A DNA stretch of 64,000 nt from Pseudomonadota bacterium (GCA_041178425.1 JBEGVH010000020.1:32001-96000); one strand, 5' to 3'; counted from the stretch's first letter, positions 33,303 through 59,653 are shown. The notes: generated by a model from the sequence alone, not told the origin. Program-made: numbers and translations.

Positions 33303-33517
33303 CATTAAATAAATTTTAGTTGTCGACGAAATGATCATTGCAAGTGGGTCTTCAGATGCTTGAAAAGTATGCACTTTGTCTGCAATTGAATAGTTCTTTT
33401 ACAGTGCCCGTCTCATACTGATAATTCTAAATACGTTTTAGAGGCTGTTCACTTTTTTTTAAAATTTGGCATTTCTTCATTTTGGTGTCTTCGTTAAACT
33501 GTCAGAGTGGGGGCATC

Positions 33518-35032
33518 ATGACGCTATTCAATCGCAATAAACAAATGGGATTTAGCCTTATTGAAATGCTCTTAGTCGTTGCGATTATGGGAATCGTTGC
33601 CGCCGGTTTTTCTCAAATCCTCTGGGATTCTAAAAAGTTTCAAAGTCATATAGAGCTCAAAGGTGAATCCGTTGATTTTAAAAACATGACGGCTCTGACT
33701 CTCAAGAGCTCTGAGACTTGTAAAAAAGCCCTGCATCTCGACGATGATATTGTAAAGTTTCCAAAAACAGCGATTCCTCATTACGATGGCGACACGTTAA
33801 AATGTCCGGCCGGCGATGACAAATGCGAAAAGGCTGTTGGGATTCGTTTAAAAAAACTCGAAATCATGGGCCGCGAAGAATATGATACCAGCTCTTTCTC
33901 TGGTGGTCGTGTGGCCTCTGGCGACGACACCGTTGGTGCTAGAGGAACTAAAATTAATCCACGCCTTTATCTCCACGACCTTCAAATCGAGTTCAAAAAA
34001 CCCCTTGGAGGCACCGGAGAGAATAAAACCACCTATATCACGAGTCTCATGATTCAAATGAACAAGGCTGCTGCGGATGCCTCTATTGGCTCACCAGAGC
34101 TCAGAACACGCCAGCCCGTTATTTTTAAATTAGCCGAAGATGGCAATGACTTTAAAGTGGCCGATTGCTTTCTTGATTCGGGTGATGATCCGCAAGGTCA
34201 ATGTCTTAAATTGGGGGGCCGCTGGCTCGCCAGCTCGAATAATGGTGGTAGTGGGGGAAGTGTATTGGGCATTACGAATGTGTCTTGTCCAAAAACCAAA
34301 CTCGATACGGGTGGCTCTTCTGGGAAGTGTATCTTCAGCAATAATTATCCGCTAGGCCCAAAGGAGCTTCCTGATGGGATCCCCTGCCATGGCAATCAAA
34401 ATGAGTTGAATGAGCGTCCCATAACCTGTTTTTTTAAAGATGGGGTAAAAATTAGTGAAAAAATTTGTCCCGCTCGTGATTCCGCTGATACTCCTGGAAA
34501 AAAGAAGTGCGTCTTCGTCAATGGAGAATGGCAATTTGTCAAACAAACCGGTGGCACCTACAAAAAGCTAAGAGCTTGCGATGAGGGTGTAGAAGTAACT
34601 AAAGCTCCATCAGGCCTTAAAGTTTATGATTGGAACGATAATGGCACTAATCCATTGAATCCCAACGCACTCCCAGATGAGCCCACAATACTCACCGGAG
34701 CTGCCCGCTGCCTGGTAGACATCGAAAGAAATATTTATAAAGAATGCACCAATGCAGACCAAGACGAAGGCGAAGCGGCCAAGATGGAAAAAAAGGCTTG
34801 TTGGTGGATTAATGGAACTGCAAACAACGGAAAGTTAAGCAGTGCTCAAGCAACTGAAGACCTCATTAAGAAACGAATTTCCTACTGTGAAAAAGTTAAC
34901 AAAAATGACCCAACAGAGTGCCCCCCCAAAAATAATTTGGGGAACTACAAGGGCTGGTACTACATCACCGGAAAAAATCAGAGTGGTAAGTATATTGGCA
35001 TCCCTTGCTTCGAAGTAGAGGTGGAACAATAG
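33518..35032 (+). CDS. Prepilin-type N-terminal cleavage protein with large Cys-rich body
   Basis: G|FSLIEMLLVVAIMGIVA class III signal; 18 Cys downstream. Confidence 0.82.
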   Translation: MTLFNRNKQMGFSLIEMLLVVAIMGIVAAGFSQILWDSKKFQSHIELKGESVDFKNMTALTLKSSETCKKALHLDDDIVKFPKTAIPHYDGDTLKCPAGDDKCEKAVGIRLKKLEIMGREEYDTSSFSGGRVASGDDTVGARGTKINPRLYLHDLQIEFKKPLGGTGENKTTYITSLMIQMNKAAADASIGSPELRTRQPVIFKLAEDGNDFKVADCFLDSGDDPQGQCLKLGGRWLASSNNGGSGGSVLGITNVSCPKTKLDTGGSSGKCIFSNNYPLGPKELPDGIPCHGNQNELNERPITCFFKDGVKISEKICPARDSADTPGKKKCVFVNGEWQFVKQTGGTYKKLRACDEGVEVTKAPSGLKVYDWNDNGTNPLNPNALPDEPTILTGAARCLVDIERNIYKECTNADQDEGEAAKMEKKACWWINGTANNGKLSSAQATEDLIKKRISYCEKVNKNDPTECPPKNNLGNYKGWYYITGKNQSGKYIGIPCFEVEVEQ

Positions 35033-52125: not shown

Positions 52126-52202
52126 GCGGGTGTAGCTCAGTTGGCTAGAGCGCAACCTTGCCAAGGTTGAGGTCGTGGGTTCGAGCCCCATCACCCGCTC
52201 CA
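52126..52202 (+). tRNA. tRNA-Gly (GCC)
   Basis: GCGGGTG acceptor stem, CAACC-TTGCCAA-GGTTG anticodon arm, GGTTCGAG T-arm, encoded CCA. Confidence 0.97.
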
Positions 52203-52253
52203 ATTATCTCTAATATCAAACGAGAGATTGGTTCTTCCGCAAAACAAATAAGA

Positions 52254-53441
52254 TTAAATAAATTCATAAACTGGTATCGATCGCTCCCTTAGCGTTTTGA
52301 CTATCGAAACTACCTTAGCCGCAACGTAATCCACTTCTTCTTCCGTGGTGTATCTACCCAATCCAAAACGTAAAGTAGAATGAGCAATCCCCCGACTCAA
52401 ACCAATCTGCCTCAACACATACGAAGGCTCATGACTTGCAGAGGAACAAGACGATCCGCTTGAAACAGCCACTTCTGGCATTTGTTTCATGATGGCCTCA
52501 CCAACAATTCCTGCAAAACTCACATTCAAATTATTCGCGAGCCGCTGAGTGGGATGTCCGTTTAAATAAACCTGATCTAATTGGGAATTTAAGGCACGCC
52601 AAAGGCGATCACGCAAACGAATAATACGTGCACATTCAGAGCCCCTTTCTTTCAATGCTAATTCGGCAGCTTTGCCAAAACCAATAATACCAGGAACATT
52701 ATGGGTCCCAGAACGTAGACCTTGCTCTTGTCCACCACCATGTATTTGCTCGGCAATAAGTGATTCAGAGTACCTCTTTGAAGCGTAGAGCGCCCCCACC
52801 CCTTTAGGACCATAGATTTTATGAGCCGAGAGCGAAAGCAGATCAACACCCAAAGCATCAACATTTATCGAGCAGAGGCCTGCCGCCTGAACGGCGTCGG
52901 TGTGTAAAAACACGCCCTCTTTGCGACAGAGGTGTCCAATGTCTTGAATAGGATTAATGGAGCCAATCTCGTTATTAGCCATCATTATTGAAACCAATAT
53001 CGTCGTGGGGCGAAGCGCTTTTTGTACCTGCTCCGCAGAGACTTGCCCATGTTGATTCACAGGCAAATAAGTGACTGAGTACCCTTGGCGCTCAAGATGA
53101 AGACAGGCCTCAAGCACCGACTTATGCTCTACCGATGTTGTTATGATATGATTGCCTCTGCTTTTAGCCTTAGAGGCCAAACCCAAAATTGCTAAGTTAT
53201 TACTTTCAGTAGCACCAGAAGTAAATAATATCTCTTTTTCTGAAGCTCCAAGCAAAGTCGCAATCGTCTTTCGAGCACATCCAATTGCGCGCTCGGCTTC
53301 GCGCCCAAACGAGTGATTACGGTTCGAGGGGTTGCCAAAATGCTCCGTAAAATACGGCACCATTAATTTAAAAACTTCGGGATCAACCATTGTGGTCGAA
53401 TGGTGATCTAAGTAAATCGGAAATTTTAAACCCATCGCCAC
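52254..53441 (-). CDS. iscS: Cysteine desulfurase (IscS type)
   Basis: FTSGATESNN, SAHKIYGPKG, RSGT, SSGSSCSS. Confidence 0.9.
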   Translation of the reverse strand: MAMGLKFPIYLDHHSTTMVDPEVFKLMVPYFTEHFGNPSNRNHSFGREAERAIGCARKTIATLLGASEKEILFTSGATESNNLAILGLASKAKSRGNHIITTSVEHKSVLEACLHLERQGYSVTYLPVNQHGQVSAEQVQKALRPTTILVSIMMANNEIGSINPIQDIGHLCRKEGVFLHTDAVQAAGLCSINVDALGVDLLSLSAHKIYGPKGVGALYASKRYSESLIAEQIHGGGQEQGLRSGTHNVPGIIGFGKAAELALKERGSECARIIRLRDRLWRALNSQLDQVYLNGHPTQRLANNLNVSFAGIVGEAIMKQMPEVAVSSGSSCSSASHEPSYVLRQIGLSRGIAHSTLRFGLGRYTTEEEVDYVAAKVVSIVKTLRERSIPVYEFI

Positions 53442-53631
53442 CGCCTTTTTGCACCAATCATGTTGAACTCTGCTATAATTCCAACAAAAACACCAGTCCC
53501 ACTATTAAACAGAAGCCATTTATATTTGTTTCCATTCTTGCCCCCCCTAGTACTAACGCAGAACAACAGCATTTAGAGCCATACAAATAAATCCCCTTGA
53601 CCCCATAGACCTATTGACTACTGTTTTGCCC

Positions 53632-54216
53632 ATGACCAATGCGATTACAGACTTTATCGGTGTTTTTAGCAATGCCTACTCCAGTGAATTTTGCGAGCAG
53701 GCCATCAACACATTCAAAATGGCTGAACAGTACGGCTTCACTGTCAACCGGCAGGAGCACGGCAACGCCAAAAAAACGGCTAAAGATACAAACTCTTTGT
53801 TCATCTCCGCCGAAACTAGCTTTGAATTATTGCATACAGCCCAACTCAGCAGCGAGTTTGGTCGCATTTTCTGGAGCGAAGTTTATCCTGCTTATGCCTC
53901 GAAATATTCTATTCTCGAGGATATGGATCCTCATCGCTATTACTGTTTAAAAATGCAGAATACAAAAATCGGAGGCGGCTATCATATTTGGCATCAAGAG
54001 AATAGTGTTATCAACCAAAGGCGGCTGATAAACTTTATGCTGTACCTCAACACAGTCGAAGACGGTGGAGAAACAGAGTTTCTCTATTACTCGCGACGAA
54101 TCAAGCCAGAAATGGGAAAAATTATTATCTACCCTGCGGGATACACTCACACCCATAGGGGTAACCCGCCCCTTTCGAATGAAAAGTTCGTGATCAACGG
54201 ATGGCTGGAGTTTTAA
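53632..54216 (+). CDS. 2OG-Fe(II) oxygenase (phage-type, prolyl-hydroxylase-like)
   Basis: YHIWHQE, LYLN..EDGGETEF, THTHRGNPP..EK motifs. Confidence 0.85.
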   Translation: MTNAITDFIGVFSNAYSSEFCEQAINTFKMAEQYGFTVNRQEHGNAKKTAKDTNSLFISAETSFELLHTAQLSSEFGRIFWSEVYPAYASKYSILEDMDPHRYYCLKMQNTKIGGGYHIWHQENSVINQRRLINFMLYLNTVEDGGETEFLYYSRRIKPEMGKIIIYPAGYTHTHRGNPPLSNEKFVINGWLEF

Positions 54217-54217
54217 C

Positions 54218-54562
54218 ATGACGACTATCGAAAACCTTCCTCTGATAGCAGAAAAAGATTATAAATATAGTTTTCCCTACGGTTACTGGGCCGAGCCTCA
54301 AATTCAAGTTTTAAATGGCACCTATGAAGGGCTTGTCTTCGACGTAATGAAATCAGGAGTGGGAAAATTTGCAAACGCCGATGATTATCAATTTACGTTT
54401 TCTTACCGAATTTTACGAATGTGGAAAGACGTACTCCCCGCTCAATTTGATGGCGCCAAAATCACTCTTCAAGATCATGATGTGACTTTTATAAGTAAAC
54501 TCATCTTGAGCTTCATCGAAGACTTTAACAAGAAGAAGAGTCATGGCACTACCCGGAACTAA
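54218..54562 (+). CDS. Phage-like hypothetical protein
   Basis: Tightly coupled in the operon; resembles, from memory, small proteins of T4-like phages. Confidence 0.55.
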   Translation: MTTIENLPLIAEKDYKYSFPYGYWAEPQIQVLNGTYEGLVFDVMKSGVGKFANADDYQFTFSYRILRMWKDVLPAQFDGAKITLQDHDVTFISKLILSFIEDFNKKKSHGTTRN

Positions 54563-55451
54563 TCAATCGATATCGCTTTCGCAGGTCAATACAGAGCTGG
54601 GAAAATCCTCTACGGCCACCATCTCACTTAATGATGCTGCCGTGCGAGCACTGTTCGGTAAAGCAACGGGAGCCATCTCCTTTGCTGATGGCTGGGGAAA
54701 AATCAACCCCTGGACAGGAGCCATTACCTCAAATCAAACGGTAGTGAACCTTAGAACTTGGGCCACCAGCGCTGGTTGGAATGGCACGGTTCCAGCCATC
54801 ATCACACTCAATGCCAATTGCTATATTTACTCAGGCAATACAGCATCGAACGCACTCACCATTGATGGCTCTTGGCCTAATGGCGTGACCTTCGTAAATA
54901 ATGGCTTTGTGCTCGGTATGGGGGGCGCTGGTGGGGCAGGGGGCACAGGTTCAACGTATCCCTATTACACAACAGCGCCGGCCGCATTCAATGGCTCAGC
55001 TGGTACCAACGGAGGGAACGCTATTTCTCTTGGCGTTAATTGCACGATCGCCAATAACGGAACCATCGCCGGAGGCGGAGGGGGCGGAGGCGGTGGCGCC
55101 ATCACGCAATACCTACCAATGTGGGGTACATTTATTATGGATGATGATTTTATAGTGGCCGAATTCAGTGGCGGAGGCATGGGTGGGGGCGGAAAAACCG
55201 GACTCACGAACAGTACCGGCGGAAACGCAGGAACCTCAACAAATCCCGGCGCGGGAGTCACTAATGGTGGGGGCGGAGGAGCCTGGGGAACAACCGGGGT
55301 AGCAGGTACAGCACCCGCTCTACCCGCCAATAAAACATTAACAAGCAAAGGCACCCCTGGTGCCGGAGGGGCCGCCGGAAAGTGCGTAGCCCTTAATGGC
55401 TTTACGGTCACTTGGGCCGCCACCGGAACCAGAGACGGCGCTATTTCGTAG
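54543..55451 (+). CDS. gp38-like receptor-recognising glycine-rich adhesin
   Basis: N-terminal ISLSQVNTELG..ISLND..VRAL..AISF motif, NNGFVLGMGG and NNGTIAGGGGGGG, multiple polyglycine motifs; no signal peptide. Confidence 0.75.
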   Translation: MALPGTNQSISLSQVNTELGKSSTATISLNDAAVRALFGKATGAISFADGWGKINPWTGAITSNQTVVNLRTWATSAGWNGTVPAIITLNANCYIYSGNTASNALTIDGSWPNGVTFVNNGFVLGMGGAGGAGGTGSTYPYYTTAPAAFNGSAGTNGGNAISLGVNCTIANNGTIAGGGGGGGGGAITQYLPMWGTFIMDDDFIVAEFSGGGMGGGGKTGLTNSTGGNAGTSTNPGAGVTNGGGGGAWGTTGVAGTAPALPANKTLTSKGTPGAGGAAGKCVALNGFTVTWAATGTRDGAIS

Positions 55452-55459
55452 GAGGCAGA

Positions 55460-55759
55460 ATGACGACAAAGTATGGAGTTTATAATCCTCAAAAAGGTGA
55501 ATACGATTTGTTTAAAACCAAAGAAGAAGCCCTTGAGGCTTTTTGGGAAAGAGTTATCGCAACAGCCAAAGAACATTACCACAACACCGCTTATACGACT
55601 ATTCATTACAACGAAGACGGAACAGAGACTTGGTTGAATGAGAGCGACCAAGAGATCACCAAAAAAAGAACTCTTAATGAGATCAAGGCGATTCTCAAAC
55701 ACGAACAAACAGAGATTCTCGCTAAAGCGCAACAAGTAAAAGTAGAGAGGTTCCCATGA
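55460..55759 (+). CDS. Small phage-like hypothetical protein
   Basis: SD GGAGG, ATG 55460; KYGVYNP..GEY and DGTETW motifs. Confidence 0.65.
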   Translation: MTTKYGVYNPQKGEYDLFKTKEEALEAFWERVIATAKEHYHNTAYTTIHYNEDGTETWLNESDQEITKKRTLNEIKAILKHEQTEILAKAQQVKVERFP

Positions 55760-56304
55760 GAAAAACCGCCAGTTTAGGGTATTTTGGCAACATTTGGGTA
55801 CGACAAAATCTGATAGAGAAAGCCGGCGATTCTTACCAAGGGCATACTCACCACTTTGACCACGTGTCTTTGTTAATAAGCGGCAAAGCCCTTGTTGAAG
55901 TCGAAGGGCACTCGCCAAAAGAATTCACGGCTCCCACTTTTATTGTTATTCGCAAAGAGGTTGAACACAAGTTCACCGCCCTCGAAGACAATACTGTGTG
56001 GTTTTGCATTTTTGCTTTGAGAGATATCGACGGCGAAGTCGTTGAAGACCTCTACGGACCACAGCATGACCCCTTACACGAATGGCGCAAACTCGAAGAA
56101 GACACGCGAGAGGAACTCCTCAAACAAAAAGAAAACGAGAGTGAAGAAGCCTACAGAAAACGAATGCTTGAACTCGATGAAAAAACAACTCAGATGATTC
56201 ATAACGCCGCAATCTGGAATGAAAATCGCAAAAAGAAAATGCAAGAGCTGCGAGATCAAAATACGACTCCCGATAATCTAGTGGCGACTCCAAACAACGC
56301 CTAA
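55756..56304 (+). CDS. Cupin-fold protein (phage-type)
   Basis: GHTHHFDHVSLL..G and EHKFTALEDNTVWFC. Confidence 0.75.
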   Translation: MRKTASLGYFGNIWVRQNLIEKAGDSYQGHTHHFDHVSLLISGKALVEVEGHSPKEFTAPTFIVIRKEVEHKFTALEDNTVWFCIFALRDIDGEVVEDLYGPQHDPLHEWRKLEEDTREELLKQKENESEEAYRKRMLELDEKTTQMIHNAAIWNENRKKKMQELRDQNTTPDNLVATPNNA

Positions 56305-56309
56305 ATACC

Positions 56310-56340
56310 AAAAAAAAAGGGGGGCCCAAGAGCCCCCTTT
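56310..56340. terminator. Bidirectional terminator between convergent genes
   Basis: A-run, GGGGGC-loop-GCCCCC, T-run. Confidence 0.8.
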
Positions 56341-56359
56341 AAATTTTCAAAAAGATAGA

Positions 56360-57082
56360 TCAATAATCCCGACGCTGTGATTCTAATTCTCCAACACGGG
56401 CCTGTAATTCTTTAATGCCCTCAATAAGCAAGGGAATGATCTTTTCATATTGCACTGTTAGGTAGTTTTCACCCGAAATCGATTGATATTGGTTGTTCTC
56501 ATTGAGTCGACTATCGAAGGGCGCCAGCTGAATCGCCTCTGGGAGAACTTTTTGAATTTCTTGCGCAATCACTCCCACCTGCTGAGAACCATCTTTAAAA
56601 CCGTGAGCCTGAGCACGCGAGTTCATATTAAAATAGCAACCTGAGATTTGATCTATTTTTGCAAGCGCGCTCTCGATGGGGCGAATATTTTCTTTTAAAC
56701 GATAATCCGAAAAATAGGCGGTGATGTTATTGGTGGCGCGAATTTCACCAGCACTGCCAGCCGTTGTTCCCACTCCAATCGAAGACACCTGATAGGTATT
56801 TGCAGTTACCAAGGCTGAAGCCGAACTGGCGGTTCCGGCATTACCTGAGACATTGATTGACCATGTTCCCGAAGCACCAGTGCCATTCGTAGAGGGAGCC
56901 CCACAATCAGAGGCCACGAGTGTCACCGCTCCGGTCTTTCCAGCCACACTCGTCACAGGGGCCGATCCCACTTTTTGCCATGTGGCTGCACGGGCTGGGC
57001 GAATAAAACCCAAAATCATTTGAGAGATCAAACCAAAAAAACCGGTAATAAATGCAAATCTAAAAAAGTTACGTCGTTTCAT
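56360..57082 (-). CDS. Tat-signal short tail-fibre tip with peptidase S74 intramolecular chaperone
   Basis: SD AGGAG; MKRRNFF + hydrophobic core + ARA; VTSVAGKTGAVTL; SDYRLKENI...GVIAQE...LIEGIKEL. Confidence 0.85.
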   Translation of the reverse strand: MKRRNFFRFAFITGFFGLISQMILGFIRPARAATWQKVGSAPVTSVAGKTGAVTLVASDCGAPSTNGTGASGTWSINVSGNAGTASSASALVTANTYQVSSIGVGTTAGSAGEIRATNNITAYFSDYRLKENIRPIESALAKIDQISGCYFNMNSRAQAHGFKDGSQQVGVIAQEIQKVLPEAIQLAPFDSRLNENNQYQSISGENYLTVQYEKIIPLLIEGIKELQARVGELESQRRDY

Positions 57083-57251
57083 TGTCACTCCTAAACAATA
57101 AAAAAATCGATGAGAATCCCGCGATCAAGCACGCTTCAAGTTGAGCCGACCTCTTCCTATTTTTGAGCCGAAGAGCATCTCACGTCAACGAGTTCGAAGA
57201 ATCATCAAAACCAAAACAAAAATAGTTTTTATTTATTGAAAGGAGCCAGAC

Positions 57252-58826
57252 TTATTTACAGACAAAGAGATCCCCGTTGGAATCAACGCCTAGACTTCCG
57301 GTGGGGGAACAATTAGAACCACTCGTCACGGTTCCCAACACCAAGTTAGTCACCCGAGCCGTACCATTAACATCGAGCTTGTAAGCCGGAGAACTCGTAC
57401 CGACACCAACGTTACCACTCGCATCGATTCGCAGAGAATTGCCACCATTGTTATATATATCAACCACGCCATCACTCGGTGAGAAAAACCCAGTATCCTG
57501 ACTAGCATCTTGAGTGAAAGCAAAACCACCGGCTGTACCCGCACCTTGGGAAGATAAAATTTTTGTGGAAGCGTTGATAATACCAGCTACATCTAGCTTG
57601 TAGGCAGGCACTGTGGTTCCGACCCCTACAATCCCCGTTGATTTCCAAATGCTGAGGCCAGGCAGATTAACATCTCCCGAAAACGTAGGGCTTGCTGTTT
57701 TAGCTGCATCAGTGATCCCGTATCCATCGATGGTGGTGGGCTTACCCGTGGTGATCTTATTCCAATCGAGCGAGGGTATATCCGCGGCCACTAAACTGCT
57801 ACCAGAGGTTACGCGACCTTTCGCATCTGTTGTCACTTTGGAATACGTGCCCGCCGTGCCCACCGACGCTAAAGTCGCAACGGCATTACCTGCACCTGAG
57901 CTCGTCACATCGCCGCTTAATACCGAAATACCATCGGTTATTCCGTAACCATTCAAGGTTGAGGGTCTGCCTGAAGTTATTATGCTCCAATCGAGTGAGG
58001 GTATATCTGCAGCCACTAAACTACTACCAGAGGTCACACGACCTTTCTCATCCGTCGTAACTTTGGAATACGTGCCCGCCGTGCCCACCGACGCTAAAGT
58101 TGCAACGGCACTACCAGTACCAGTAGTCGTAACATCACCACTCAGTGAGGTTATTCCACTCGTACTACCCGTTCCACCGCTGCTACCTCCACTACTGCCA
58201 CCACTGCCAGGCTGGGCGTATTTGTTCGATGTACCAGCAATCAATGCCAAAAGGTCGACGTAGTTTTGGTTTGTCAGAGGTGGTGCTGTAGCGCCTTCTA
58301 CTCTCAAAACGCCACTACTTGGAATTCCAGCAACGTTAAAAGTATCCAAGGAATGAGGGCTTGCCATTATTTCTACGGGGTCGACATTCTCAAAACCACC
58401 ACCAGGATCGAACGACATCACTAAATAAAGCTTGTCGCCCGGCACTCGTTCAAAGCCTCCAGCACACTGGGTTGAATTTAAAACTTTAAGATCTGGATTA
58501 AAGATTTTTCCAAAACTCAGTGGGTTCGTATCCGTTCGCTGACCCTCACCCAAAAATAACGAAAAGTACCCTGGCGATAAGCTCATGTCTTTTACGAATC
58601 TCTCAGAATAAAGAATACAAGTTTTGTTAGGAGCGGTGATAGAAACCATAAATTGCACATTGGTTCCAGCGACAGGCTGCCCGTTTCTATCAACGATACG
58701 ACCCTGATAATTCAGTCCCATTGACGATCGATCAGGGGTAGCAAAAGCCGCCGGAGCCGTTCCCAAAAAGTAAAGGCTAACTAAAATCAACAATGCTAAA
58801 TATCTTTGAATAACTAGATATTTCAT
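57252..58826 (-). CDS. Secreted trimeric adhesive fibre (MAT-like stalk with phage tail-fibre repeats), no S74 domain
   Basis: Sec signal ending AFA, LNYQGRI N-terminal domain, GTYSKVTTDxKGRVTSG repeats, GxVGVGT..PAYKLDV repeats. Confidence 0.8.
   Translation of the reverse strand: MKYLVIQRYLALLILVSLYFLGTAPAAFATPDRSSMGLNYQGRIVDRNGQPVAGTNVQFMVSITAPNKTCILYSERFVKDMSLSPGYFSLFLGEGQRTDTNPLSFGKIFNPDLKVLNSTQCAGGFERVPGDKLYLVMSFDPGGGFENVDPVEIMASPHSLDTFNVAGIPSSGVLRVEGATAPPLTNQNYVDLLALIAGTSNKYAQPGSGGSSGGSSGGTGSTSGITSLSGDVTTTGTGSAVATLASVGTAGTYSKVTTDEKGRVTSGSSLVAADIPSLDWSIITSGRPSTLNGYGITDGISVLSGDVTSSGAGNAVATLASVGTAGTYSKVTTDAKGRVTSGSSLVAADIPSLDWNKITTGKPTTIDGYGITDAAKTASPTFSGDVNLPGLSIWKSTGIVGVGTTVPAYKLDVAGIINASTKILSSQGAGTAGGFAFTQDASQDTGFFSPSDGVVDIYNNGGNSLRIDASGNVGVGTSSPAYKLDVNGTARVTNLVLGTVTSGSNCSPTGSLGVDSNGDLFVCK
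57708..58157 (-). repeat. Two tandem 225-bp (75-aa) fibre repeats
   Basis: Units 58157-57933 and 57932-57708; 41 identical bp at 57835-57875 and 58060-58100. Confidence 0.9.
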
Positions 58827-58834
58827 CTACTTTC

Positions 58835-58862
58835 TTATCGGCACTTTTGATCAGAAAATTTA
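58835..58862 (-). promoter_or_regulatory. Sigma-28 promoter of the fibre gene (near-leaderless)
   Basis: TAAA-N16-GCCGATAA, 8 nt before ATG 58826. Confidence 0.75.
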
Positions 58863-59335
58863 AGACTATTTTAAATGATCGATGAACCAATTTGAGATGG
58901 ATTTGCCTCAAAACACTAAAAACTCAACTACACAATGCTATCTCAATCTAAGACACTTCCCTTTGATGAATCTTTTTTTACATTCTAACTACATCGGCCA
59001 AAACTTGGGTCTTATCTGCATCTTCGAACTGTGAGCATGTTCCCCACTAGGAGGCCTAAATCAATATTCTAGAAATCTGTGAGAAGTTCCTAAACTCTCC
59101 CCTCAAAAGAAGGTAATAATTTAGTATTTTTATATATTTAGATAAGACACCAGCAACAAAAAAGCAGTCCAAACTCAGAACCACTAACCAAGAAAACATT
59201 TACTTAACGAAAAAAAAACTACCCAAAACCCCTATTTTAGTGGTTTAAAGGGCGCTCAAAGTCGTTCGAATGATTCCTTTAGATGTCCTATTGTGTTCTG
59301 CGAATGGCCCCCAACAGCTTTCTCAGGAGGCAATT

Positions 59336-59653
59336 ATGGGTAAAAAAATATACGTCGGTAACCTTTCATACAATGTTGATGATCAATCTTTGGGTGATCT
59401 TTTCGCTCAATTTGGTCAAGTTGATTCAGTTCGCGTAGTAACTGATCGCGAATCTGGTCGCAGCAAAGGTTTTGCATTTGTTGAAATGTCAACTGATGCT
59501 GAAGCATCTACTGCAATCGAAAAACTTAATGGTTCAGAATTTTCTGGCCGCGCTATGAACGTTAGCGAAGCTAAACCAATGGCTCCTCGTGAAAACAATC
59601 GCGGCGGTGGCGGCGGTCGTGGTGGTTTTGGAGGAGGACGTTCACGCTACTAA
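59336..59653 (+). CDS. RRM RNA-binding protein with Gly-rich tail
   Basis: RNP2 IYVGNL and RNP1 KGFAFVEM; SD AGGAGG. Confidence 0.93.
   Translation: MGKKIYVGNLSYNVDDQSLGDLFAQFGQVDSVRVVTDRESGRSKGFAFVEMSTDAEASTAIEKLNGSEFSGRAMNVSEAKPMAPRENNRGGGGGRGGFGGGRSRY

Follow-up and report, generated by a model that had tools for sequence, protein, structure and literature searches.

Phages of the T2 and S16 types keep their specificity in an exchangeable cap, the adhesin gp38, at the end of the long tail fiber. In the S16 structure (6F45), one gp38 sits on the trimeric end of gp37 through three equivalent contacts of its N-domain, and three gp38 helices insert into three equivalent gp37 pockets, as described in PMC6851490. 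The S16-type fiber joins gp36, and fiber and cap are encoded by adjacent genes. A related use of such fibers is found in predatory bacteria. The main text of PMC10769870 presents the mosaic adhesive trimers (MAT) of Bdellovibrio as phage-like trimeric fibers in which phage receptor-binding parts are reused for prey binding. These proteins carry a signal peptide followed directly by a conserved β-rich domain of ∼130 amino acids (aa), some of them use an S74 domain, and recognition lies in the fiber's own C terminus. A third system concerns export. Twin-arginine translocation (Tat) can carry partners that have no signal of their own, e.g. in E. coli PaoABC and in heterodimers with the signal on one partner (PMC4273604 and PMC10924467). 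In the hitchhiker cases described there, the signal is on one subunit, the partner is assembled with it in the cytoplasm, and the cargoes are cofactor enzymes.

Here, we describe a locus in which these three systems appear to meet. The window, i.e. the whole stretch of DNA analyzed, is 64,000 nucleotides long and comes from a Pseudomonadota bacterium (GCA_041178425.1, JBEGVH010000020.1:32001-96000). Its genome (3.06 Mb in 43 contigs, 100% complete by markers) contains 11 matches to the N-terminal domain of MATs (MAT_N), and we therefore consider the host to be a Bdellovibrio-like organism. An earlier note on positions 53,632 to 58,862, made from the sequence alone, had described a domesticated phage receptor-binding module with a Sec-exported stalk, a Tat-exported S74 tip, and a signal-less gp38-like adhesin. 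All seven open reading frames (ORFs) of that note are present at the coordinates it gave, and family matches agree with its inventory of a Sec-type fiber lacking S74 (hereafter MAT524), a short S74 fiber (the tip), and a gp38-like protein without a signal peptide (the adhesin). We propose, with moderate confidence in the chain as a whole, that a Bdellovibrio-like predator retains a phage host-recognition cassette in its chromosome and has re-fitted it for export. The parts are of known kinds (gp38 adhesin, S74 fiber, MAT, and Tat signal), and their combination was not found in print. The terms gp38, Tat, and twin-arginine are absent from the main text of PMC10769870, and titles and abstracts revealed no publication joining gp38 with Tat or Bdellovibrio on this topic, nor, among the matches listed, one on a Tat-exported fiber; one of those listed, on contractile injection systems, mentions both twin-arginine and tail fiber.

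Results

A gp38-like adhesin and a short S74 fiber

Two genes are central to the proposal, and their parts are as follows (window coordinates).

54543..55451, plus strand: gp38-fold polyglycine adhesin, 302 aa, without a signal peptide
54543..54701, plus strand: N-terminal adaptor module of the adhesin (N-module, aa 1–53), containing IS[LF] three times, with a short helix behind each motif
56360..57082, minus strand: short S74 fiber (tip), 240 aa, with an ATG preceded by AGGAG
56987..57082, minus strand: putative twin-arginine-type signal of the tip (aa 1–32), with KRRNFFRF, an uncharged h-region, and RPARA
56711..56986, minus strand: mature short fiber (tip aa 33–124), with a terminal NITAYF directly before the predicted S74 cut
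56360..56710, minus strand: S74 intramolecular chaperone/protease (tip aa 125–240 and stop codon), PF13884

The adhesin matches the Pfam family GP38 (PF05268) with 33.4 bits (cut-off 25), its residues 70–300 aligning to positions 17–216 of the 218 in the profile, and it is the single GP38 match in the host genome. It has long glycine runs and no hydrophobic N terminus. Its AlphaFold2 model, computed from a 93-row alignment, has a pLDDT of 90.2 and a pTM of 0.81, and displays the β-helix and polyglycine-sandwich fold of gp38, with helices at aa 12–18, 32–38, and 47–50. When this model was compared with the Protein Data Bank (PDB) by Foldseek, a check that the earlier note had suggested with S16 gp38 as the target, the best three matches were all gp38 chains with a probability of 1.00. 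These are PP01 gp38 (9v85_C, 1.3e-12; 9v85_A, 5.8e-11) and S16 gp38 (6f45_D, 1.4e-9; TMt 0.68), and the fourth-ranked match has an E-value of 1.7. The pair shares with the fiber tips of S16, T2, and PP01 the gp38 fold, the PF05268 match, the glycine runs, and the kind of S74 fiber. The identity of the adhesin to S16 and PP01 gp38 is ∼22%, and PDB sequence searches with the protein or its profile returned chance glycine-run matches only. Among the matches listed for its homologs (n = 900), PF05268 is present in 120 of 120. In Vibrio phage vB_VpaP-MS02, the ORF directly after the S74-ended tail fiber (1,251 aa) overlaps the fiber stop codon, and its beginning shares 70% identity with adhesin residues 1–53. 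In a metagenome run considered below (X3), the glycine region of the adhesin has a 3-nt insertion at 55155.

The tip matches Peptidase_S74 (PF13884) over aa 127–185 with an E-value of 2.6e-15 and 56.9 bits (cut-off 22). The SDxxxK motif, given as the S74 catalytic motif in the main text of PMC10769870, can be read as S125-D-Y-R-L-K130, and the tip may cleave off its S74 domain at S125. By tblastn, this domain finds matches in 261 phage records, including T-even-type proteins annotated as long tail fiber distal subunit. At E ≤ 0.001 there are 1,342 tip homologs among proteins of similar length. Of 16 that were read, 12 are phage-type short fibers without a signal, mostly with a MAFP..NGQ-type N terminus. 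The exceptions are the four closest relatives of the tip, which come from metagenomes, are 53–66% identical to it, and have the RR N terminus; in two of them, the fiber between the signal and the S74 site spans only ∼40 residues. The mature fiber of the tip is itself short (92 residues), and it is preceded by a putative export signal where the S16-type fiber joins gp36. The tip has no match to Bdello_MAT_N (NF053851) and is not a MAT.

The tip and the adhesin are predicted to form a 3:1 complex

We modeled three mature tips (aa 35–124, without signal and S74 domain) together with one adhesin. The prediction reached ipSAE values of 0.80, 0.81, and 0.80 (best control, 0.01), a mark attained by 116 of the 157 solved complexes and by only 2 of the 215 mismatched pairs in the calibration, with at least 98% of contacts shared between runs and partner pLDDT of at least 91. 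In the predicted interface, tip residues 119–124 (NITAYF) of all three copies contact adhesin residues 7–13, 23–30, and 42–48. Each of these adhesin stretches holds one IS[LF] motif with a short helix behind it, the three motifs lying within the first 50 residues. This model supports an arrangement in which one adhesin caps the trimeric fiber tip via its N-terminal domain, much as one gp38 does in 6F45. The contacts differ in kind, being tryptophans on three helices in S16 (PMC6851490) and three ISL-type strand motifs in the predicted complex.

Phage gene order points the same way. When 156 loci were retrieved on the basis of similarity to the tip, 39 proved to have an ORF matching a gp38 profile, mostly beginning at the fiber stop codon. 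With a profile of the N-module, a start between −60 and +150 nt from the fiber stop was found in 22 of the 70 loci from metagenomes, in 4 of the 72 from genomes, and in none of the 77 more distant viral ones. An N-module ORF lies downstream of fibers ending in N[IV]TA[YF][YF] in 35 of 76 loci, versus 2 of 143 for other S74 fibers, counts for which the fiber-end groups were defined after the interface had been seen, NITAY[FY]SD served as the seed in two of three scans, and the loci lack independence. Of the 11 S74 proteins of the host, the tip is the one with a NITAYF-type end, and a six-frame translation of the genome contains this motif a single time. Since the fiber end is unique and there is a single GP38 match, the tip is the only possible partner of the adhesin in this genome. 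Together, the predicted complex, the phage synteny, and the unique partner give in silico support to the pairing that the earlier note had envisaged, and the two proteins may be regarded as a cognate pair on these grounds.

Besides the way in which the fiber-end groups were formed, several points tell against this pairing. The ipSAE mark was calibrated on single-chain pairs and not on 3 + 1 chains with custom alignments. The score could also partly reflect the solved S16 gp37–gp38 structure. The genes for the tip and the adhesin are in convergent operons with two genes between them, not adjacent as the S16-type pair and the phage genes are. Finally, the linkage of an RR-type tip with an adhesin comes from one lineage.

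Across the phage contigs (loci L013–L248), the body behind the triple ISL-type module of ∼55 aa varies, being gp38-like in some cases and unrelated in others. It is possible that a general rule applies, whereby an S74 fiber end N[IV]TA[YF][YF] goes with a gene starting in a triple ISL-type module. We also observed a single 598-aa ORF (L131:3216-5012 and L132:5623-7419) that has both an S74 fiber match and a gp38-profile match (profile positions 12–299 at aa 300–597), which would be either a fused form or an assembly/frameshift artifact.

The tip has a conserved RR-type N terminus

The consensus of Tat signals is S/T-R-R-x-F-L-K. The tip begins with MKRRNFFRF, a hydrophobic segment leads from there to RPARA, and signal cleavage is expected after A32. 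Residues 2–8, K-R-R-N-F-F-R, agree with a consensus-type RR motif and, apart from the x, are invariant in the tip and its four relatives (5/5). The same holds for the wider set K2, R3, R4, F6, F7, R8, F9, R28, P29, A30, and A32, with basic residues just before the conserved AxA site, and for T34, W35, and K37 at the start of the mature protein. In the host, RR-x-F-h-[KR] has 11 instances in 2,606 ORFs, six of which lie in the first 40 aa (∼1.1 expected). One of these six is in a flavin adenine dinucleotide (FAD) amine oxidase starting with MERRNFLK (G000:C37:14589-16292), a textbook RRNFLK leader that would make this enzyme a convenient control of Tat export for the host organism. A search limited to TatC found it with 245.7 bits (G000:C31).

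The RR-type N terminus has a narrow distribution. A search with tip residues 1–45 returned the query itself only, and when 1.84 billion representatives were searched with a profile, no cluster other than that of the window aligned from position 1, all further alignments beginning at position 14 or later. Scans with the tip-family alignment gave signal-less fibers only among the matches listed in genome_contigs, metagenome_contigs, and viral_contigs, and 60 further genomes of the family yielded no RR-type tip.

None of the plus-strand products, the adhesin included, has its own signal, and assembly in the cytoplasm followed by co-export through Tat is therefore the route that we consider most likely. 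The alternative to be taken most seriously is that the RR N terminus acts as a normal Sec signal or remains uncleaved as a membrane anchor, in which case the tip would fold outside the cytoplasm and the adhesin would never meet it or would leave the cell otherwise. We regard this as doubtful, while giving it real weight. It agrees with the outcome of the profile searches, in which the tip had no match to Tat-signal hidden Markov models (HMMs; Pfam TAT_signal and NCBIfam TIGR01409) at E ≤ 0.1 in Pfam and E ≤ 1 in NCBIfam. Because such profiles are short, this is weak evidence. The h-region of the tip is also rather long and hydrophobic, with a mean Kyte-Doolittle value of 1.54 versus 0.85 in the signal of the FAD oxidase. 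On the other hand, a Sec signal or anchor does not explain why KRR-x-FFRF is invariant in all five members with basic residues just before AxA, or why the same extended motif is found on a cofactor enzyme of the host, and it would strand the adhesin's only genomic partner across the membrane. The Tat signal of the earlier note hence fits a conserved RR motif, and the curated HMMs do not recognize it.

The other S74 proteins of the host also bear on the export route. There are 11 including the tip, and none of the other 10 has the RR N terminus, which speaks for the alternative of a Sec signal or anchor. Four of the 10 are MAT_N proteins, the family described with a signal peptide in the main text of PMC10769870, and three or four have pilin-like N termini by eye. 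Folding of an S74 fiber, therefore, need not be cytoplasmic. What sets the tip apart from these fibers is its predicted partner without a signal. The N termini of the other S74 proteins, the missing profile match, and the h-region all count against Tat export of the tip, as do two more general points. The Tat assignment is plausible and relies on the reading of a motif, and the evidence here reaches the periplasm at most, short of the cell surface.

Four of these S74 proteins are 617–833 aa long and have the domain at their end, three of them encoded in tandem (G000:C9:255846-261789, L249:359-6290) and one elsewhere (G000:C26:35738-38257, L250). Two or three display, by eye, prepilin/pseudopilin-like leaders in which G-x-[ST]-L-I-E precedes a hydrophobic segment. 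Pfam N_methyl has no match at E ≤ 0.01 in these proteins. If the leaders are real, the S74 fibers of the host would be mounted on MAT, pilin-like, and RR-type N termini. The window itself encodes, at 33482-35032, a large pilin-like protein of 516 aa in which PF07963 (1.2e-6) identifies the N-terminal methylation motif of prokaryotes.

The genes around the pair have phage relatives

The remaining features of the locus are as follows.

53614..54216, plus strand: 2-oxoglutarate (2OG)-Fe(II) oxygenase, 200 aa, without a signal peptide, opening the phage-type operon
54218..54562, plus strand: 114-aa protein of no known family
55460..55759, plus strand: small 99-aa protein without a family assignment, with an ATG at 55460 in an ORF that opens at 55412
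55756..56304, plus strand: cupin-type metal-site protein, 182 aa, with a core at about aa 7–90 and a long C-terminal helical hairpin
56320..56337, no strand assigned: GC-rich hairpin with a T-run, terminator-like, between the convergent operons
57252..58826, minus strand: MAT-family fiber without S74, 524 aa (MAT524), with a Sec-type signal, adjoining the tip upstream on the same strand

The five plus-strand genes are tightly packed and converge with the minus-strand genes on a shared hairpin (7 pairs, 6 GC, with a T9 tail on the minus strand). Promoter and terminator scans of the locus, taken whole, did not rise above their shuffles. For the small protein, an Atlas record begins at residue 17 of the ORF that opens at 55412, i.e. 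at the ATG at 55460, and with this start there is no overlap with the end of the adhesin gene.

Homologs of these genes accompany S74 fibers in phage-like loci. The oxygenase (PF13640, 3.1e-11; phrog_61, 1.1e-38) has a homolog between the S74 fiber and the gp38-like gene in metagenome loci L107 and L115, and the cupin has homologs in loci L019 and L021, the former of which also has portal, major head, and amidase genes. The cupin protein shows a weak match to Cupin_2 (0.0026) and matches phrog_34170 and phrog_12032 (short tail fiber protein); its residues H30, H32, D35, H36, and H71 are kept in the homologs from both loci. Its best PDB sequence match is weak (9bwf, a cellulose oxidative enzyme, E 0.0036) and its model, from a three-row alignment, has a pLDDT of 65.6. 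Its role could be that of an accessory to the fiber module, acting on glycans or binding metal. The 114-aa protein has no match in Pfam, PHROG, and NCBIfam, and its nearest Atlas clusters are viral hypotheticals (0.87), which is a lead only. In the same three collections, the 99-aa protein matches no family at a significant E-value; its nearest Atlas clusters are viral (0.84).

The closest phage counterparts, e.g. phage vB_VpaP-MS02 and a prophage-like locus in Quisquiliibacterium transsilvanicum (L019), have the same fiber end and N-module as the window, and some loci of this type carry the same accessory cupin and oxygenase genes. Because phage-like loci carry the same parts in co-directional order, we consider the plus-strand operon and the tip to be a phage host-recognition cassette. 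It differs from its phage counterparts in several respects. Their genes are co-directional and stand beside portal, capsid, and lysis genes, whereas the tip is inverted relative to the phage gene order and stands behind the MAT gene. The phage fibers start with an attachment domain, and none of them has an RR signal among the matches listed. Likewise, gp38 belongs to a phage module next to gp37, whereas the adhesin gene lies in a bacterial chromosome without hallmark genes.

The module is lineage-restricted and fixed at one site

With the adhesin as the query, 4 of 401 genomes of the phylum gave matches. One is the host and the other three are weak partial matches (24–35 bits) inside ORFs of 595–720 aa, so that a comparable gp38-like gene is in no other of the 401. 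Two genomes of the same genus have neither a gp38-like gene nor a short RR-type tip, and the best homologs of the flanking genes (44–61% identity) lie on different contigs there. The module is thus lineage-restricted and not a general trait of the phylum.

In metagenome contigs of other studies, the module is found at the same chromosomal junctions (runs X3 and X6, differing by up to ∼10% in DNA). Contigs of run X3 bridge tRNA-Gly/iscS through the oxygenase into the adhesin (52146-54680, 21 differences in 2,536), the adhesin end, cupin, and tip (55321-56912, 85 differences in 1,591), and the start of the tip to the MAT gene (57034-57864, 1 difference in 831), and also the MAT gene to the right flank. 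An X4 contig bridges the tip and the MAT gene. In run X6, ∼10% divergent, iscS is joined to the oxygenase, which in turn is linked to the 114-aa gene and the adhesin start. An X6 joint that skips 55095-59601 was disregarded (22 letters on one side), and uncovered parts of X4 and X7 were not interpreted. Because these contigs bridge its junctions, the module appears fixed at one site in a narrow lineage of freshwater, lagoon, and estuary. Synteny across relatives, which the earlier note had suggested as a check, is thus found in related metagenome populations, and the 401 phylum genomes provide no comparable gp38-like gene. The word "domesticated" accordingly finds narrow backing in the shared junctions, and none in the searched genomes of the phylum and family, which have neither a comparable gp38-like gene nor a short RR-type tip. 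Within X3, the segment 55321-56912 (adhesin end, small gene, cupin, and S74 part of the tip) is far more divergent than the neighboring pieces, which could reflect local diversification or recombination.

These data also bear on the notion that the module is an inert leftover of a decayed prophage that does nothing for the cell today. Each of the seven genes has relatives of the phage type, none of the other genomes searched contains the module, and its GC content (0.47–0.48) is slightly above that of the flanks (0.41–0.45), as such a remnant might have it. Decay is nevertheless difficult to see. All ORFs are intact, the tip gained a signal that its phage homologs lack and that is kept in four relatives at 53–66% identity, and the junctions are the same in populations up to ∼10% divergent. 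There are no att-like direct repeats around the module. In the window, the 62 other ORFs have matches to housekeeping families only (Pfam, E ≤ 1e-5), with no capsid, terminase, portal, baseplate, or integrase, in line with what the earlier note had stated, and the whole genome has no match to Terminase_6N, TerL_ATPase, HK97 capsid (Phage_capsid), or Phage_sheath_1. An ordinary prophage was thus not found, and we consider an inert remnant unlikely.

The neighboring MAT fiber is an ordinary member of its family

MAT524 matches Bdello_MAT_N (NF053851) over aa 34–159 with 74.6 bits (cut-off 60), i.e. it has the conserved β-rich domain right after its Sec-type N terminus, which ends in AFA by eye, and is a true MAT. 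It also matches PHROG tail-fiber families and is the shortest of the 11 MAT_N proteins of the host. Pfam finds no S74 domain in it. The earlier note had made MAT524 a stalk that the tip completes, so that a Tat-exported tip–adhesin complex would dock on the C terminus of the Sec-exported MAT524 to give one long modular fiber. The genes would be well placed for this, since they are on one strand, 163 nt apart, and bridged by X3 and X4 contigs, and the invariant T34, W35, and K37 hint at a function for that end of the mature tip. We nonetheless find docking improbable. MATs without S74 are ordinary, accounting for 7 of 11 in the host and for 8 of 21 in B. bacteriovorus HD100 according to the main text of PMC10769870, and the absence of S74 from MAT524 therefore needs no tip in trans. 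MAT524 has its own tip-like end, in that aa 451–502 match the β-helix capping loops in the tip structures of Bd3182 and Bd2133, and nothing else in the genome resembles its final 40 aa. Moreover, a weak promoter-like site lies between the two genes, and the phage relatives of the tip attach by another N-terminal domain, which the tip lacks. A functional link of MAT524 to the cassette is hence unproven. Two further observations concern this gene, namely a 225-nt internal tandem duplication at 57707-58142 (81% identity), encoding two 75-aa repeats, and, in run X3, a 12-nt deletion at 58183 in a Gly/Ser linker.

That the module serves an active prophage, tailocin, or contractile injection system encoded at this place or at another in the genome is highly improbable, for tail-fiber-type genes are present but the hallmark families searched for are missing from the window and the assembly, and the tip has no attachment domain of the phage type.

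Discussion

The sequence of events that we propose is the following. The N-terminal baseplate-attachment domain of the phage homologs would have been replaced by a twin-arginine signal. The tip would trimerize in the cytoplasm with the aid of its C-terminal S74 domain, which it would then cut off at S125. One gp38-fold adhesin would cap the three freed NITAYF ends, with one ISL-type motif per fiber chain, and the folded complex of three tips and one adhesin would cross the inner membrane by Tat, the adhesin as a passenger. The oxygenase and the cupin may modify the tip or the adhesin, a guess from synteny. The result would be an extra, exchangeable specificity of the cell for binding other bacteria. 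A wider statement, that a predator exports an assembled, self-cleaved S74 trimer with a signal-less gp38-type hitchhiker by Tat, and that phage NITAY[YF] ends accept any triple-ISL cap, we offer only tentatively.

Each of the three known systems covers part of this scheme. As in the MATs of the Bdellovibrio study (PMC10769870), phage-like trimeric fibers and the use of S74 are found in a predatory-type host. The tip is unlike MATs in having an RR signal and no MAT N-terminal domain, and recognition would lie in a separate signal-less cap rather than in the fiber's own C terminus. Signal sharing would follow the Tat hitchhiker principle, with a cargo of a different kind, i.e. a fiber trimer with three signals and an adhesin.

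MAT fibers showed that predatory bacteria reuse phage fibers for prey recognition. If confirmed, the present locus would add a two-protein design in which specificity lies in an exchangeable cap, as in T2- and S16-type phages. It would also offer a possible answer to how a signal-less protein exits, by riding on a Tat-targeted fiber, and would widen Tat cargo from cofactor enzymes to phage-type adhesin complexes. The correspondence between NITAYY-type ends and triple-ISL caps, seen in dozens of phage contigs, could help to predict cap–fiber matches in phage genomes. The mechanism that we propose is specific, could be tested at little cost, and involves small parts. If it is true, it would constitute a route for arming the cell surface with phage adhesins, beyond the MAT work and the Tat literature that we have seen.

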